A DNA stretch of 64,000 nucleotides. It comes from a virus. The notes below the pieces were generated by a model that worked only from the letters and a program-made list of their open reading frames with translations, searched no databases and was not told the origin of the DNA. The DNA is taken from the IMG/VR virus record IMGVR_UViG_3300045988_113168; one strand, 5' to 3'. Below are positions 6,679 through 27,748 of the stretch, in pieces (position 1 is the stretch's first letter; the number at the start of each line of letters is the position of its first letter). A program made the position numbers and the translations under genes.

Positions 6679-6999
6679 ATGAATAACGAAAATAAGATTG
6701 TTGTGACTAGTTGGGATGGTAAGTCTTGGGAAATGACTCCTGAACAGATTGAGGCGGCTTACCGTTACAAAGAACGTCAGTATCGCATTGAGGATGCTAA
6801 GAATCAGCTTGAATTTTACGCGGATTGGATTAAAGAAAAATACGGCTATTCCTACGATGAAGTTATTGAACATGCAGAGGAGTTGGCTGAATGTTTTCAG
6901 GACAATTTTGATTGTGATATGTCGGAAAATAGCTTATGGTCTAGTTTTATCACGGAAATGTTTGACGGACTTAGCAGAAAGGAAAATAACGATGACTGA
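6679..6999 (+). CDS. hypothetical protein
   Basis: Track ORF with AAGGAG upstream. Confidence 0.7.
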   Translation: MNNENKIVVTSWDGKSWEMTPEQIEAAYRYKERQYRIEDAKNQLEFYADWIKEKYGYSYDEVIEHAEELAECFQDNFDCDMSENSLWSSFITEMFDGLSRKENNDD

Positions 7000-7222
7000 C
7001 CCCTGTCGTTATTGTGTAGCGCCGGAGCGTTATCCTGGTTGTCACGACCATTGTGAGAAGCTGAAGGCTCATCGTGAAAGTGACGAGTATAAAAAGCTGT
7101 GTGAGTATAAAGATACATATTTCAAAAGTCACCTTTGCAAGAATACGGTAGCAATCTATCACGATATGCGTCGCAGAAAACACAAAGGAATGTCTTGCCT
7201 TGGATATAAAGGAATAGGTTAA
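6992..7222 (+). CDS. Cys-rich hypothetical protein
   Basis: ATG 6992 (MTDPCRYC) after AAAGGAAAA, inside track ORF 6749..7222. CxxC and CxxxC motifs present. Confidence 0.6.
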   Translation: MTDPCRYCVAPERYPGCHDHCEKLKAHRESDEYKKLCEYKDTYFKSHLCKNTVAIYHDMRRRKHKGMSCLGYKGIG

Positions 7223-7234
7223 GGAGGAAATAAA

Positions 7235-7477
7235 ATGTGGGATTTAATTGAAGATGAATACTCTGAAGAATATAAAATCGGAAGAGCAAAATTCAAGAAC
7301 AAACAAACAGGTCATTACTTTACAATCATGTATAGGATATTTAGCTTTGACATTTCTTTTTATTATCCAGAGTATTCTTTCTCTATCACTCTTACTACCG
7401 TAAGAGATAAAGAAGAAATGAAAGGAATTATTATTTTAAGACATTCTAAAGCTTTGGCTAAAACTTTGGAGGATTAA
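7235..7477 (+). CDS. hypothetical protein
   Basis: Track ORF with AAGGAGGA upstream. Confidence 0.65.
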   Translation: MWDLIEDEYSEEYKIGRAKFKNKQTGHYFTIMYRIFSFDISFYYPEYSFSITLTTVRDKEEMKGIIILRHSKALAKTLED

Positions 7478-7479
7478 CT

Positions 7480-7728
7480 ATGTGGGATTTAAGAGAAGTT
7501 CATGCACTGTACGATGGTGAATGTTGGGTCTGGAATGAATCTTTCCATCACAAGAATGTGTTCGTAGACGAGAATGAAGATCCGAAAGAAATCTTTTGGC
7601 AGGAATGTCAGATGTTCTTCCTTCAGGACTATCTAAGCAGGTGTGAAATCGTGGATGATGGCGATATCCTGGAACTTCAGTTGAAGGATTCCGGTGAGCC
7701 GGTTCTCGCTATGATTATTGAAGAGTAA
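7480..7728 (+). CDS. hypothetical protein
   Basis: Track ORF with GGAGGA upstream. Confidence 0.65.
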   Translation: MWDLREVHALYDGECWVWNESFHHKNVFVDENEDPKEIFWQECQMFFLQDYLSRCEIVDDGDILELQLKDSGEPVLAMIIEE

Positions 7729-24031: not shown

Positions 24032-26242
24032 ATGAGAACTTTGCTTCTTTTCCGTGGAGCACCAGGATGCGGGAAGTCCACCTATATTAAAGAGCATGAT
24101 CTGGAAAAGTATACGCTTAGTGCCGATACGATTCGCCTTATGTGTCAGGGTGGTCAGGAAACCCCGGCTGGCACAATGGAAATCTCTCCCCAGAACGATG
24201 ATGTTGTCTGGGATATGCTCTTTAAACTGTTGGAGGTTCGGATGTCTCACGGTGAATTTACCGTGATTGATGCAACGAACTCTAAAACTGTCGAAATCAA
24301 TCGCTATAAGAATCTTGCCAAGCAGTACAGGTACAGAATGTACATCATCGACATGACTGATTTGCCCATTAGTGAGTGTAAACGGCGTAATTCGCTTCGC
24401 ACTCTTCTGAAGAGAGTCCCGGATGCTGCCATTGATAAGATGTATGCACGATTCGCAACGCAGAAGATTCCGTCTGGTGTGACTGTACTCTCGTCAGATG
24501 TAAATATCCTTGAGAAATTGAACTATGTTCCGCAGGACTTTAACAACTGGAGCAAAATTCATATCATCGGTGATGTGCATGGGTGTTACAGTTGCTTGAA
24601 AGAGTATCTTGGCGACCTGAAGGATGATGAACTGTACATTTTTGTTGGCGATTATCTGGATCGTGGAATTGAAAATGTAGAGATGTTCAAGTTCCTTTGT
24701 GATGTTGTAGACAATAATCGGAAGAATGTGATCCTTTTGGAAGGAAATCACGAGCGTTGGCTGAACAAGTGGGGGCATGATGAACCGGTTCAGAGTGAAG
24801 AATTTGCAAACTACACTCGTCCGCAGCTCTTTAAAGCCGGTATTGACAAGAACACTGCTCGTAAGATCTATTCCAGAGTCGGCCAATGTGCCTACTTTGA
24901 GTATGATGGGAAACGGTATTTTGTGAGCCACGGTGGTTTGAGTTATCTGCCTTATTTTCTTCCTTTTGTATCTGCTGATCAGATGATTAAAGGCGTAGGT
25001 CGCTATCCTGATATGCTAACCGTGGCTGAGTCTTGGGAAAAATCGATGCCGGATAGCTGCATTCAGATCTTCGGTCATCGAAATGTGCAGGATGTTCCCA
25101 TTGATATGGGGCATCGGTGCTACAACCTCGAAGGAAAAATCGAGTTTGGTGGATATCTCCGTTGCGTGGAACTTGAACACGGTCAGTCAATCAAATGTGT
25201 AGAAACCAAGAACGATGTGTTCCGAAAAGAGGAGCCAAAGACTGAAACTGCCGTTGAAATGAAAACTGAGTTCGATAACGCAGAACTTGTTAGTAAGATG
25301 CGCAAAAGCAAATATGTGTTTGAGAAGCGATTCGGAGATATTTCTTCTTTCAACTTCTCTCGTGAAGCATTTTACAAGAAGCACTGGGATGAGGTTTCTA
25401 CCAAAGCAAGGGGATTGTTCATTAACACAAAGACGAATAAGATTGTAGCTCGAAGCTATGATAAGTTCTTTGCGGTTGATGAGCGGAATGAAACGAGAAT
25501 TGGAAACCTACAGAACACTTTGAAGTTCCCGGTGACTGCATATCTAAAAGAGAATGGATTTCTCGGTATCATTTCGTATGATGCAGAACAGGATGGTCTG
25601 TTCATTGCAAGTAAATCTACTCCTGAAGGGCCTTTTGCAGATATGTTCCGAAAGATTTTCATGGATACGACTTCTGATGAAGACCGTAAGAATCTAAAGG
25701 AAGTTGCAAAAGAGAATGGTTCCATCATTTTTGAGGTAATTGATCCTGTAAATGATGCTCATATCATCGAATACAAGACACCACATATTGTTTTGCTGGA
25801 TATTATTGCGAATGATATGAACTTCAGTGTGATGGATTACGATGATCTGAAGCGTGTTGCTGAAAAGTGTCATTTGCAGATTAAGGAGAAGGTTAAGATC
25901 TTTGAGAGCTGGAGTGAATTCTATCCTTGGTATGAAGAAGTCATGAATGAGAATTATCTGTACCATGGCATCGAGCATATTGAAGGTTTTGTTTTGAGAG
26001 ATAACAACAATTTTATGTTTAAGCTGAAGCTTCCTTATTATAAGCACTGGAAGTTCTTGCGTGGTGTTATGCAGAGCGTACAGAAGCGTGGCTATTACGA
26101 AAACACTGCCAAGCTGTTTACTGCTGAAGATAATTTATTCTATGGTTGGATGCGTGAACAACGAGAGAAAGAAAAAGAGTCTTTCTGCAAGAAGGGTATT
26201 ATTCAGTTACGGAATGAATTCTATGAGAATCGGCACGAATAA
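24032..26242 (+). CDS. Pnkp-type RNA repair enzyme: polynucleotide 5'-kinase / metallophosphatase / RNA-ligase-like adenylyltransferase fusion
   Basis: P-loop kinase GAPGCGKST at the N-terminus. Calcineurin-type phosphoesterase motifs GDVHGC, GDYLDRG and GNHE in the middle. Nucleotidyltransferase motifs I KENG, III FEVID, IV EGFVLRD and V FKLKLP in the C-terminal third. Same domain order as bacterial Pnkp. Confidence 0.75.
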   Translation: MRTLLLFRGAPGCGKSTYIKEHDLEKYTLSADTIRLMCQGGQETPAGTMEISPQNDDVVWDMLFKLLEVRMSHGEFTVIDATNSKTVEINRYKNLAKQYRYRMYIIDMTDLPISECKRRNSLRTLLKRVPDAAIDKMYARFATQKIPSGVTVLSSDVNILEKLNYVPQDFNNWSKIHIIGDVHGCYSCLKEYLGDLKDDELYIFVGDYLDRGIENVEMFKFLCDVVDNNRKNVILLEGNHERWLNKWGHDEPVQSEEFANYTRPQLFKAGIDKNTARKIYSRVGQCAYFEYDGKRYFVSHGGLSYLPYFLPFVSADQMIKGVGRYPDMLTVAESWEKSMPDSCIQIFGHRNVQDVPIDMGHRCYNLEGKIEFGGYLRCVELEHGQSIKCVETKNDVFRKEEPKTETAVEMKTEFDNAELVSKMRKSKYVFEKRFGDISSFNFSREAFYKKHWDEVSTKARGLFINTKTNKIVARSYDKFFAVDERNETRIGNLQNTLKFPVTAYLKENGFLGIISYDAEQDGLFIASKSTPEGPFADMFRKIFMDTTSDEDRKNLKEVAKENGSIIFEVIDPVNDAHIIEYKTPHIVLLDIIANDMNFSVMDYDDLKRVAEKCHLQIKEKVKIFESWSEFYPWYEEVMNENYLYHGIEHIEGFVLRDNNNFMFKLKLPYYKHWKFLRGVMQSVQKRGYYENTAKLFTAEDNLFYGWMREQREKEKESFCKKGIIQLRNEFYENRHE

Positions 26243-26308
26243 CTAAGATATTTTCTTCCTCCGAAAATGCCCTGCGCGGGGCTGACAGCCGGGAAAGACC
26301 GGCAATAT

Positions 26309-26387
26309 GGCCCTATGGCGGAACGAGGCATACGCAACAAGCTCAAACCTTGTAAAATTCTCAGTTCAAATCTGAGTAGGGCTACCA
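26309..26387 (+). tRNA. tRNA, anticodon CAA (Leu-type 5' half) but with short variable region, CCA encoded
   Basis: Hand-folded cloverleaf. Acceptor GGCCCTA/TAGGGCT, D arm GCG-12 nt-CGC (class II-like), anticodon arm ACAAG-CTCAAAC-CTTGT, 6-nt variable region, T arm CTCAG-TTCAAAT-CTGAG, A73, CCA. Confidence 0.6.
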
Positions 26388-26466
26388 ACCCATTTGCAGA
26401 TGGGTAAGTGCTAGAATATTGGCAAATCGGAAAGACGGTTGACTGCTGGACAGACAGCTTTGATAT

Positions 26467-26551
26467 GTCACTATGGCGAAATTGGCGAGACGCATCGGAC
26501 TTAAGTTCCGACGGTAGCGATACCATCTGGGTTCGACTCCCAGTAGTGACA
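26467..26551 (+). tRNA. tRNA-Leu(TAA)
   Basis: Acceptor GTCACTA/TAGTGAC, anticodon arm TCGGA-CTTAAGT-TCCGA, 15-nt variable arm, T arm CTGGG-TTCGACT-CCCAG, A73. No CCA encoded. Confidence 0.8.
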
Positions 26552-26558
26552 CTGATAT

Positions 26559-26634
26559 CCGGGTGTAGCTCAGTTGGAAGAGCGCGTGCTTTGGGAGCAT
26601 GAGGCCGCAGGATCGTGACCTGTCACTCGGACCA
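26559..26634 (+). tRNA. tRNA-Pro(TGG)
   Basis: Acceptor CCGGGTG/CACTCGG, D arm GCTC-AGTTGGAA-GAGC, anticodon loop TTTGGGA, T arm GCAGG-ATCGTGA-CCTGT (A54/T58), CCA encoded. Confidence 0.8.
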
Positions 26635-26666
26635 GCCCGAAAGGGCATGTAGAATTTTTCATTCAC

Positions 26667-26722
26667 ATTATTCCCAGCTCTCTGGAAACAGAGCAGTGTG
26701 GCGTAGCAAGCTGGGTAGATTA
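26667..26722 (+). ncRNA. conserved 56-nt structured element, copy 1 (immediately 5' of tRNA-Gln)
   Basis: ATTATTCCCAGCTC is identical to copy 2. Outer helix 26673-79/26709-15. Inner hairpin CTCTG-GAAA-CAGAG at 26680-93. Confidence 0.55.
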
Positions 26723-26794
26723 CGAGGATTAGCCAAGCGGATAAGGCAGTGGAATTTGACTCCACGACCGCAGGTTCGATTCCTGTATCCTCGA
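26723..26794 (+). tRNA. tRNA-Gln(TTG)
   Basis: Acceptor CGAGGAT/ATCCTCG, D arm GCCAAGCGGATAAGGC (typical of tRNA-Gln), anticodon loop ATTTGAC, T arm GCAGG-TTCGATT-CCTGT. Confidence 0.8.
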
Positions 26795-26801
26795 TTTATA
26801 T

Positions 26802-26886
26802 GCGGGTATGGTGTAACTGGCAGCCACGCGGATTTTAGGTGTCCGTGCCGAAAGGCGTGAGGGATCGTGCCCCTCTACCCGTACCA
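26802..26886 (+). tRNA. tRNA-Leu(TAG)
   Basis: Acceptor GCGGGTA/TACCCGT, anticodon arm CGGAT-TTTAGGT-GTCCG, 13-nt variable arm TGCCGAAAGGCGT, T arm GAGGG-ATCGTGC-CCCTC (A54/T58), CCA encoded. Confidence 0.8.
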
Positions 26887-26933
26887 CGGTCATAGAATGG
26901 TTGCGTACCGTTTGTTGATCTCCTTTGACCACT

Positions 26934-26989
26934 ATTATTCCCAGCTCGCTCGTAAGAGTGCAGTAGTGCTTTGTAAGCTGAGTGATTGT
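26934..26989 (+). ncRNA. conserved 56-nt structured element, copy 2 (immediately 5' of irregular tRNA-like element)
   Basis: Same length and same distance to the downstream cloverleaf as copy 1. Inner hairpin CGCTC-GTAA-GAGTG at 26947-60 carries compensatory changes. Confidence 0.55.
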
Positions 26990-27061
26990 GCAGTTATGGT
27001 GTAGTTGGTAAGCACGCTTGCTGATGAAGTAAGAGGATGAGTTCAAAACTCATTGACTGCA
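26990..27061 (+). tRNA. irregular tRNA-like element (anticodon loop TGATGAA, 3-nt variable region)
   Basis: Acceptor GCAGTTA/TGACTGC, D arm GTGT-AGTTGGTAA-GCAC and T arm ATGAG-TTCAAAA-CTCAT are good. However position 33 is G and the variable region is too short. The nominal anticodon is ATG. Confidence 0.35.
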
Positions 27062-27065
27062 AAAT

Positions 27066-27258
27066 ATGAAATCAGTTGTTCTAGCTCGTTCGTGGATTGG
27101 CCGTACATTGGCGACCGGAAAGACGTCATACCGGTAAAGGACGTCAAGCCAGACAAGAAGAGAAATAAGGTGTAAGCCGACTAGCTATCGGATAAATACT
27201 CTTCGGTTCGCCAGAAAACTAGAATGTAAAACGAATGGTTGGCTGTTTCTGATTTCAT
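27066..27258 (+). ncRNA. about 193-nt structured non-tRNA spacer RNA
   Basis: Closed by a perfect 10-bp helix (27066-75 ATGAAATCAG / 27249-58 CTGATTTCAT) and a second helix (27079-84 / 27219-24). Interleaved helices 27114-18/27131-35 and 27122-27/27140-45 look pseudoknot-like. Hairpin CCGA-CTAGCTA-TCGG. No convincing ORF or SD. Confidence 0.5.
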
Positions 27259-27264
27259 TTATAT

Positions 27265-27340
27265 GCGACTGTAGTTCAATTGGCAGAGCGTCAGATTTCC
27301 AATCTGAATGTTGCGGGATCGTGCCCCGTCAGTCGCTCCA
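27265..27340 (+). tRNA. tRNA-Gly(TCC)
   Basis: Acceptor GCGACTG/CAGTCGC, anticodon arm TCAGA-TTTCCAA-TCTGA, T arm GCGGG-ATCGTGC-CCCGT (A54/T58), U73, CCA encoded. Confidence 0.85.
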
Positions 27341-27471
27341 CACGCAGCCCCTTACGCTGCACCGGTTGCTCAGAGCCGAAAGAAACCTATATGTTACGAC
27401 ATGGTTGCCAAGAGTGATCATATTGGAACGCGACGTAGCTTGGATAGTGAGAATTAAATTCTGAGGTATAC

Positions 27472-27540
27472 TGCTGGATAGCTTAATGGTAAAAGCGCTC
27501 GGAAACGCCGAGAGATAAGGTTCGATTCCTTCACTGGCAT
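27472..27540 (+). tRNA. degenerate tRNA-like element (no usable anticodon loop)
   Basis: The D arm GCTT-AATGGTAA-AAGC and T loop GGTTCGATTCC are good. The anticodon arm is replaced by CTCGG-AAACG-CCGAG (5-nt loop) and the acceptor pairing is weak. Confidence 0.3.
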
Positions 27541-27567
27541 CACGCCGATGAAAGTCGGCGTTTGCAT

Positions 27568-27644
27568 GGGATAGTAGCTCAGTTGGTCAGAGCTGGCGGC
27601 TCATAACCGCTTGGTCGCGAGTTCAAATCTTGCCTGTCCCACCA
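27568..27644 (+). tRNA. tRNA with CAT anticodon (elongator Met or Ile2; not initiator-like)
   Basis: Acceptor GGGATAG/CTGTCCC with a paired 1-72, anticodon arm GGCGG-CTCATAA-CCGCT, T arm GCGAG-TTCAAAT-CTTGC, CCA encoded. Confidence 0.8.
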
Positions 27645-27748
27645 GCCCGATAGGGCATACATAAAATCTGCTAGAACTTTTGTTTTATAAGCGAATGAAT
27701 AATATGACGTTAATACGTCTATTATTTTTCGCTCATTTTTAAAGTTTT

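Follow-up and report, generated by a model that had tools for sequence, protein, structure and literature searches.

A conserved nested double pseudoknot before tRNA genes of large phages and Faecalibacterium, a candidate tRNA-processing or ribozyme-like element

Two copies of a structured element within a phage tRNA cluster

The 64,000-nt stretch of DNA analyzed here (virus record IMGVR_UViG_3300045988_113168; hereafter the window) has a GC content of about 40%, is part of a large phage genome, and carries its genes on the plus strand. A gene at 24032–26242 encodes a 736-aa kinase/metallophosphoesterase/Rnl1-type RNA ligase (phrog_8238 match, E = 5e-225; the closest isolates are SPbeta-like Bacillus phages, with 44% identity in the ligase), and directly 3' of it lies a tRNA cluster (26309–27644) comprising Leu-CAA, Leu-UAA, Pro-UGG, Gln-UUG, Leu-UAG, an irregular tRNA, Gly-UCC and Met. 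Within this cluster, two copies of a 53-nt RNA motif were located on the plus strand at 26663–26715 and 26930–26982, followed on the same strand by the tRNA calls for tRNA-Gln(UUG) (26723–26794) and the irregular tRNA (26989 or 26990 to 27062), respectively. A covariance model of the motif (R1) found exactly these two matches in the window, with 78.5 bits (E = 6e-16) for copy 1 and 73.4 bits (E = 9e-15) for copy 2. The copies form a gap-free direct repeat of 50 nt with 76% identity, 267 nt apart. A preliminary description, made from the letters of the window, had recorded them as 56-nt elements at 26667–26722 and 26934–26989, each leading into a tRNA; both were found where described and the repeat is real, but the motif was shown to start 4 nt further 5', and the last 7 nt of the described extent proved to be a variable, U/A-rich spacer. 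Likewise, the tie to the 5' side of a tRNA was borne out, whereas the copies do not exactly abut the tRNA but are set off from it by a spacer of 5–9 nt, 7 nt in copy 1.

In copy 1, the 5' strand of a pseudoknot (PK) helix, UCACAUU (26663–26669), pairs at all seven positions with the 3' strand AGUGUGG (26695–26701), including two G.U pairs that fit the plus strand only. The linker L1, AUU (26670–26672), leads into the 5' strand of helix P1, CCCAGCU (26673–26679), which pairs with AGCUGGG (26709–26715) with a duplex energy of -11.7 kcal/mol. Between the two P1 strands lie the P2 hairpin CUCUG-GAAA-CAGAG (26680–26693; folding energy -5.6 kcal/mol), a junction C (26694), the 3' PK strand, and a joining segment J, CGUAGCA (26702–26708), the first C and fifth G of which are a probable lone pair closing a triloop. 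The spacer UAGAUUA (26716–26722) then reaches tRNA-Gln(UUG). Copy 2 is built in the same way, with a PK helix CACUAUU/AGUAGUG (26930–26936/26962–26968) paired at seven of seven positions, L1 (26937–26939), a P1 helix with one C.A mismatch (26940–26946/26976–26982), P2 (26947–26960), the junction C (26961), J (26969–26975), and the spacer UGAUUG (26983–26988) before the irregular tRNA, extended by one U if that tRNA begins at 26990.

Fold and covariation

Single-sequence folding of either copy was unremarkable (z = -1.6 and -1.2), and the case for structure thus rests on the homologues. These showed that the motif is a nested double pseudoknot of about 53 nt supported by covariation, with its segments in the order PK 5' strand (7 nt), AUU, P1 5' strand (7 nt), P2 hairpin, C, PK 3' strand (7 nt), J (7 nt, rarely 6 or 13), and P1 3' strand (7 nt). 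Covariation in the homologues confirmed both helices already recognized in the preliminary description, namely the outer one, CCCAGCU/AGCUG(G/A)G, and the inner hairpin, which carries the paired substitutions. The picture of a simple hairpin inside a helix, however, gave way to the nested double pseudoknot, in which a 7-bp helix is formed with the 5' flank: the first 7 nt after the invariant C, belonging to what had been taken as a 15-nt single-stranded loop, pair with this flank, and the supposedly free 5' tail ATTATT supplies its first three bases to the PK helix and its last three as the invariant AUU linker. A model with a plain three-way junction, in which the 15-nt stretch holds a third hairpin of 3 bp, was also replaced by the 7-bp pseudoknot, and only the lone C-G pair closing the triloop survives from it.

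The model R1 was built from 49 distinct copies, and the pseudoknot is not part of it. Base pairs were counted in a MAFFT alignment of 49 distinct sequences and, guided by the model, in an alignment of 68 distinct sequences, among them the bacterial copies described below; the three helices were paired in 99.1% and 98.6% of the cells, respectively. Both sides change in 13 of 19 pairs, and the covariation score was 0.56–0.65 as against 0.21–0.24 in shuffles (0.650 as against 0.241 for the 68 sequences), with none of 500 shuffles reaching the observed value. When the partners were slid by 1–3 columns, the covariation was lost and pairing stood at 32–46% (68 sequences). Covariation was seen at four of the seven P1 pairs and four of the five P2 pairs, and RNAalifold independently gave P1 and P2. 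The PK helix was paired at 98.5–100% in the homologues (100% in the 49-sequence set), with both sides changing at five of its seven pairs. Of the two findings that would have spoken against the preliminary description, a lack of further homologues and a lack of covariation, neither was borne out: the covariance-model search clearly yielded the former (198 matches in 80 phage loci) and the alignments the latter in every helix.

The pseudoknot could also be assessed in a collection made blind to it, since family members were gathered by TTATT, P1, P2 and "CA" alone and PK pairing was no criterion. Even so, 67 of the 70 distinct members thus collected were paired at seven of seven PK positions and the other three at six of seven, as against just two to five of seven in four unrelated AT-rich false positives; full pairing of two random 7-mers from the window has P = 0.0016. 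The strands themselves are diverse, with GUACGUU/AGCGUGC, GUCAAUU/AGUUGAC, UCCUAUU/AAUAGGA, CCUUGUU/AAUAAGG, CUCUAUU/AGUAGAG and others serving as PK helices elsewhere. P1 5' strands include CCCAGCU, CUCGGCU, CUUGGCU, CCUAUCU, CCUUCCU and CCCGGUU, and P2 ranges from 5 bp with a tetraloop up to 8 bp or a 34-nt arm. On the complement, the frequent U.G pair in PK and the G.U pairs of P2 would turn into C.A mismatches; the folding strand is thus the tRNA strand, in line with the structured plus-strand RNA originally described.

These observations bear directly on the reading that the repeat acts as DNA (a promoter, recombination or attachment site) or is merely a duplicated unstructured leader, which we consider very improbable. 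In its favor, ATTATT looks like a -10 hexamer, integration often takes place at tRNA genes, and an integrase fragment adjoins the tRNA in the Faecalibacterium locus described below. Nevertheless, the compensatory changes keep three helices paired, and owing to the G.U pairs the complement cannot pair. No conserved -35/-10 geometry lies upstream, initiation 3' of ATTATT would disrupt the covarying helices, and phage and host copies are only about 70% identical, leaving no exact attachment core. A specific promoter reading based on TAGAAT/TAAAAT boxes, with ATTATT as the -10 hexamer, was rejected, as the distances in the two copies differ (11 versus 36 nt) and the boxes are absent in some relatives. 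In addition, a scan for sigma-70 promoters (16–18-nt spacing) and intrinsic terminators detected neither at the two copies, and upstream sequence and spacing are not conserved among the variants.

As for the arrangement in space, P1 runs directly into P2, so that these helices can probably stack, with the PK helix and the tight turn as a second stack. By analogy with the fold of the hepatitis delta virus (HDV) ribozyme, two such stacks lying side by side and tied by the AUU, C and YA cross-overs would probably make a compact knot.

Conserved and variable positions

Position by position, the family is conserved at its center (counts in this section refer to the 68 distinct homologues). The unpaired invariants are the AUU linker (68/68), the junction C (67/68) and the last A of J (68/68), and the sixth base of J is always a pyrimidine (U in 55, C in 13), C and U differing even among close relatives. 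The first and fifth bases of J form C-G in 57 homologues, U-A in five, U.G in four and another combination in one, and the first base of the spacer is U in 64 of the 68. The base immediately 5' of the PK helix is a pyrimidine throughout (68/68), while the outermost PK pair is C-G (34), U-A (14), U.G (7), G-C (6) or unpaired (7). No covariation was seen at the innermost P1 pairs (U-A, C-G), the innermost PK pairs (U-A, U.G/U-A) and the first P2 pair (C-G). Taken together with the unpaired invariants, these unvarying innermost pairs place the conserved core at the three-helix junction.

The P2 loop, on the other hand, varies in both length and sequence (GAAA, GUGA, AAAA, A5–A9, 8-nt loops, long arms). 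The GNRA cap described earlier thus holds for both window copies, and such loops are common in the family, but they are not required and are not a family feature. In five relatives (L064, L011, L008, L039 and L069, at about 6690–7630), the loop is A5 to A9 or AAAGAAA between otherwise identical flanks; this looks like homopolymer slippage in a loop that is unconstrained.

Distribution in phages and distance to the tRNA

The relatives examined encode a ligase 91–99% identical to that of the window on contigs that reach about 150 kb and in many cases measure 125–139 kb, and most stem from IMG dataset 3300045988, which is taken to be human gut. By BLAST and by pattern search, dozens of variants of the motif were recovered from these loci. 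R1 gave 198 matches across the 80 ligase-linked loci, every one of them within a tRNA cluster and on its tRNA strand. Among 244 distinct contexts, the tRNA starts 5–9 nt after P1 in 169; of these, 76 have Gly-UCC at 7 nt (with one further case each at 6 and 9 nt), 65 have Gln-UUG at 7 nt, 18 have the irregular tRNA at 6 nt, and 7 have Leu-UAA at 5 or 9 nt. Another 57 contexts place an additional hairpin in between, with a tRNA for Met, Ile-UAU or Gly beginning at 39–41 nt, and in 19 of the 244 no tRNA was found within reach downstream. The upstream tRNA is far less regular, lying 2 to 93 nt away or missing altogether; in one variant the PK helix begins 2 nt after the CCA of tRNA-Pro. Since the motif is missing in some relatives, it is a modular element.

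Searches beyond these loci widened the family somewhat. A looser pattern applied to viral contigs returned mostly chance matches and, after structural filtering, five further real copies, and the scan of a metagenome slice from which every known variant was excluded yielded a single true new lineage (L314) besides five chance matches. In the additional lineages L249, L271, L283, L287 and L314, the PK and P1 helices were kept, with compensatory changes in P2 and once in P1. Megablast of the tRNA cluster against GenBank phages gave tRNA-sized matches only.

A chromosomal copy in Faecalibacterium

A one-genome-per-species scan returned one true match, in a metagenome-assembled genome of Faecalibacterium (L207), and five chance matches; the pattern used for this genome collection (P2 as N11–14, P1 positions 4–5) was too narrow and passed over the form common in Faecalibacterium, in which the P2 loop has 8 nt. 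The L207 locus is chromosomal (IMP dehydrogenase, NAPRTase), and its motif lies 5 nt 5' of a single tRNA-Leu(UAA). Orthologous loci, drawn from the 120 best matches listed for the NAPRTase (almost all 93–96% identical, one 87%) and therefore within the genus only, share a TTGACA-17-TATTAT promoter, a leader of about 80 nt, the motif with its 8-nt P2 loop, a 7-nt spacer, tRNA-Leu(UAA) and a terminator. The gene is monocistronic, with no upstream tRNA, and the motif is therefore an element of the tRNA 5' leader and not an appendage of an upstream tRNA. A phage-integrase fragment was also noted just 3' of tRNA-Leu(UAA) (L207, 2235–2807) in this one assembly and not in the others; the tRNA gene probably serves as an integration site.

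The codon usage of the two partners differs markedly. The Faecalibacterium loci (54–59% GC) avoid UUA/UUG, GGA and AUA, the neighboring NAPRTase gene having no UUA/UUG among 47 Leu codons, whereas the phage (40% GC) uses UUA/UUG, GGA, CAA and AUA far more. The phage motifs precede Gln(UUG), Gly(UCC), Ile(UAU) and Met tRNAs. As judged from sequence, these features would fit a phage that supplies tRNAs for host-rare codons and took over, or shares, a leader module of its host, which is most likely Faecalibacterium-like.

The same features speak to a role in sensing or binding, in which the motif would be a small aptamer or a module recognized by a protein and its occupancy would control the maturation or stability of tRNAs for codons rare in the high-GC host; the regulated tRNA-Leu(UAA) bldA of Streptomyces follows an analogous logic. 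The host motif sits on tRNA-Leu(UAA) next to a gene devoid of UUA/UUG codons, the phage copies stand before tRNAs for codons in which the phage is richer, and the size and conservation of the motif, with variable helices and invariants gathered at the junction (AUU, C, A, the U-A/C-G closing pairs, YA), are like those of small pseudoknot aptamers. However, no recognizable expression platform was found, the scan revealed no terminator/antiterminator alternative at the window copies, the gene neighborhood suggests neither a ligand nor a protein, and tRNAs of several specificities are served. On balance, this reading is unlikely, though it is the strongest of the alternatives to the one proposed below. 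A terminator-like 5-bp hairpin at L211 (GGCUU-UGU-AAGCC with U-rich sequence) was rejected as too weak, its U run lying 3 nt from the stem.

Other features of the tRNA cluster

The irregular tRNA downstream of copy 2 was called by ARAGORN as His with anticodon AUG and scored 45 bits against Rfam. Its 7-nt anticodon loop, UGAUGAA, has a G at position 33 in place of the universal U. The same variant was found in many relatives, and a normal tRNA-Gly(UCC) occupies this place in others. A further weak tRNA-like match at 27472–27540 (RF00005, 32.4 bits, barely over the gathering score, without an ARAGORN call) is kept in relatives, e.g., L072 (7594–7660, 30 bits). Between the irregular tRNA and tRNA-Gly lies a non-coding module of about 200 nt (27063–27264) that has no Rfam match and recurs nearly identically but elsewhere in relatives, e.g., between Leu-CAA and Leu-UAA in L072 (6415–6615), thus behaving like a shuffled cassette. 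A small box, CGG(G)AAAGAC(C)G, occurs three times (26289–26302, 26427–26438 and 27116–27126), twice in the leaders of the first two Leu tRNAs, and may be a second leader motif or a hairpin.

Hairpins mark some of the tRNA 3' ends. The GC hairpin GCCCGAAAGGGC (26635–26646, within repeat D7 at 26631–26648; plus strand) adjoins the CCA of tRNA-Pro, 16 nt 5' of copy 1, while GCCCGAUAGGGC (repeat D7, 27641–27658) stands directly 3' of the encoded CCA of tRNA-Met, and similar hairpins come after Leu-CAA and Leu-UAG. Since such hairpins would block 3' exonucleolytic trimming, an endonucleolytic cut at the CCA seems to be needed. Directly 3' of tRNA-Leu(UAG), and 18 nt 5' of copy 2, a plus-strand hairpin ACGGU...ACCGU is followed by UUUGUUG (26886–26911) and is kept in relatives; most, though not all, motif contexts are preceded by a hairpin and a U-rich linker.

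This last arrangement is of interest with regard to the reading that the excised spacer is itself the product, i.e., a knotted small RNA of about 60–90 nt, freed by RNase P, which during infection would serve as a trans-acting sponge or decoy. With the frequent preceding hairpin and U-rich linker, the released RNA would carry structure at either end, several copies per cluster are co-transcribed with highly expressed tRNAs, and a compact fold with a tail of just 5–9 nt should resist 3' exonucleases. Such a role nevertheless appears quite improbable, given that nearly all conserved bases are engaged in the fold and no conserved single-stranded seed is present, that the tight spacing to the tRNA is left unexplained, and that in the host the motif sits on a housekeeping tRNA gene, which points to a role in cis.

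Proposed function

Conserved structured RNAs with covariation of this kind and no family assignment are rare and have repeatedly proved to be ribozymes, riboswitches or protein-recognition modules. The present motif ranks as a strong candidate for an element of a new kind, ribozyme-like or active in tRNA processing. The preliminary description had offered a processing signal, a protective structure, a decoy and a self-cleaving motif; these options are inseparable in silico, and two of them would stay the leading readings on the sequences at hand.

Our preferred, though tentative, interpretation, to which we give somewhat less than even weight, is that the motif serves as a non-catalytic, cis-acting structural boundary in pre-tRNA leaders. 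It would leave the downstream tRNA with a short (5–9 nt), U/A-rich, single-stranded leader for RNase P and would prevent base pairing between the tRNA and RNA that lies upstream of it. Directional nucleases, for example the 5'-to-3' RNase J in Firmicutes, presumed to be present in the host, could be brought to a halt at the knotted 5' strand of the motif. In this manner the motif may substitute for a closely preceding tRNA, as found elsewhere in the cluster, where tRNA-to-tRNA spacers are 6 and 7 nt. The U at the position equivalent to the HDV catalytic C in 55 of the 68 homologues was counted against catalysis.

Several observations sit uneasily with such a boundary. L041 and L032 place tRNA-Gln directly after tRNA-Pro without the motif, indicating that it is dispensable in some relatives; L041 carries an internally deleted, truncated copy; other long spacers of the window's tRNA cluster are without it; and about a quarter of the copies lie around 40 nt from the tRNA. 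Moreover, every functional step of the boundary model is inferred, and it is not obvious what use a mere roadblock or insulator would have for the invariant AUU, C and YA. Conserved cores of this kind are typical of ligand-binding or catalytic RNAs. The strongly conserved junction therefore keeps alive both ligand or protein binding, at the low weight given above, and new catalysis, at a weight lower still.

Whichever function applies, the motif connects the tRNA clusters of large gut phages with a chromosomal rare-codon tRNA of Faecalibacterium, a keystone bacterium of the gut, offers a marker for phage–host assignment, and makes the processing of phage tRNAs by host machinery testable. Should the fold prove to be a boundary element that is both robust and portable, it could serve in building synthetic tRNA arrays.

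Comparison with known RNAs

Searches of Rfam 15 (4227 models; cmscan, E ≤ 10) gave no match to the motif in the window, the relatives or Faecalibacterium, the HDV-family models included, and the hammerhead, twister, twister-sister, pistol, hatchet and hairpin models had no match over 26663–26715 or 26930–26982. The initial impression that no known small ribozyme or leader was present thus held. The motif was called as a tRNA by neither ARAGORN nor RF00005 and sits between tRNA calls, and a described tRNA-leader pseudoknot was not found in literature searches. The motif is therefore a well-supported and apparently undescribed RNA family.

Flaviviral exonuclease-resistant RNAs (xrRNAs) are directional mechanical blocks in which a 2–4-bp 5' pseudoknot and a second, loop-to-3'-tail pseudoknot form a ring. 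The motif resembles them in topology only, having a three-helix junction closed by an outer helix and a 5' flank that pairs between the second and third arms. It differs in its 7-bp PK helix, in showing no second pseudoknot and no sequence similarity, and in that xrRNAs face eukaryotic Xrn1 and not bacterial RNases. Complementarity between J and the spacer, as expected of an xrRNA-type second pseudoknot, was not conserved in the alignments when inspected by eye, no formal test being made.

SAM-II, preQ1-II and fluoride aptamers are classical H-type pseudoknots. The motif is like them in size (about 50 nt), in having two helices whose loops cross, and in gathering its invariant bases at the helical junction and within a short L1, but it has neither an Rfam match nor an expression platform, carries a hairpin inserted at the helix junction, and stands before tRNAs and not mRNAs. 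Structured non-coding pieces of precursors that influence decay, or act after excision, are known from 5' stabilizers of Firmicutes and phages and from the 3'ETS-leuZ sponge of E. coli. Those elements are plain hairpins or seeds lacking structure and have no conserved tertiary core, and none is known to form a conserved pseudoknot family that keeps a fixed distance to an RNase P site.

The closest likeness is to the theta ribozymes, minimal HDV-like ribozymes of gut phages that lie 3' of tRNAs with the cleavage site at the tRNA end (Kienbeck et al., 2024; PMC10879173), as exemplified by GAAUAGC-AA-AUGAGAA-ACC-U-CC-ACGU-GGU-GCUAUUC-GG-GUAACG-CUAA-UUCUCAU (PMC10879173). Both have the strand order of a nested double pseudoknot, in which PK corresponds to P1, the outer helix to P2 and the inner hairpin to P3 of the ribozyme. 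Their sizes also agree (7, 1–3, 7, 3+7+3, 7, 2+6+4 and 7 nt in theta versus 7, 3, 7, 5+4+5, 1, 7, 7 and 7 nt in the motif), with a 7-bp first helix, a 1–3-nt J1/2, a 7-bp second helix and a total of about 53–55 nt. In addition, both occur in tRNA clusters of human-gut Caudoviricetes-type contigs with an RNA repair or ligase gene nearby.

The differences, meanwhile, concern the position and the active site. Whereas theta ribozymes lie 3' of a tRNA, the motif is tied to the 5' side of the next one. It lacks the RCC/UCCNCGY/GGY P3-L3 and the P1.1 GG, the base after the PK 3' strand being C or U and never GG in the homologue alignments. Its equivalent of the 3-bp theta P3 is a covarying helix of 5 to 8 or more base pairs with loops of any sequence, and it has no conserved G at +1 that would form a G.U pair at the base of P1. 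Theta and HDV-like ribozymes have an invariant catalytic C in J4/2, the replacement of which by U is inactivating (PMC10879173); in place of the theta CNAA, the equivalent position, the sixth of J, has U in 55 of the 68 homologues and C in the other 13. A regular-expression re-implementation of the theta descriptor gave no match in the window, and the motif sequences are absent from the tables of the theta paper (PMC10879173). Membership of the theta/HDV group was accordingly ruled out by L3/P1.1, G1 and the catalytic C.

We then have to weigh a self-cleaving ribozyme with an HDV-type fold and a different active site, which would cut where the PK helix begins on its 5' side (before 26663 and 26930). 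Such a cut would free the 3' side of the upstream RNA and leave a 5'-OH leader on the tRNA for removal by RNase P, and the 2',3'-cyclic phosphate ends would be healed by the kinase-phosphoesterase-ligase encoded just upstream, a tRNA-repair type enzyme that could also act on such ends. The matching strand order and helix sizes, the shared niche and the pyrimidine just 5' of the PK helix in every homologue are consistent with this possibility. The variant starting 2 nt after the CCA of tRNA-Pro lies inside the ±5-nt limit applied to theta ribozymes (PMC10879173), and theta-bearing phages are enriched for RNA ligase (PMC10879173), as matched here by the enzyme gene immediately preceding the cluster. 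Against cleavage stand the missing L3/P1.1, with P2 a covarying helix bearing any loop, the lack of a conserved G at +1, the failure of any HDV-family or other ribozyme model to match, and the unmatched theta descriptor. Furthermore, the base equivalent to C75 is U in all bacterial copies, in copy 2 of the window and in the tRNA-Pro-adjacent variant itself, and Faecalibacterium has no upstream tRNA to release. Self-cleavage of this kind is hence improbable in our estimation. We rate slightly lower again the proposal of a new catalytic RNA class on an HDV-type scaffold, with a junction-centered active site (AUU, C, YA), shared by Faecalibacterium and its large phages and processing tRNA precursors independently or upstream of RNase P.

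The motif thus combines the fold and the niche of theta with the opposite side of the tRNA, and dispenses with the theta active site. Either an HDV scaffold has been reused non-catalytically in the handling of tRNA precursors, or the same scaffold has found a second catalytic solution.

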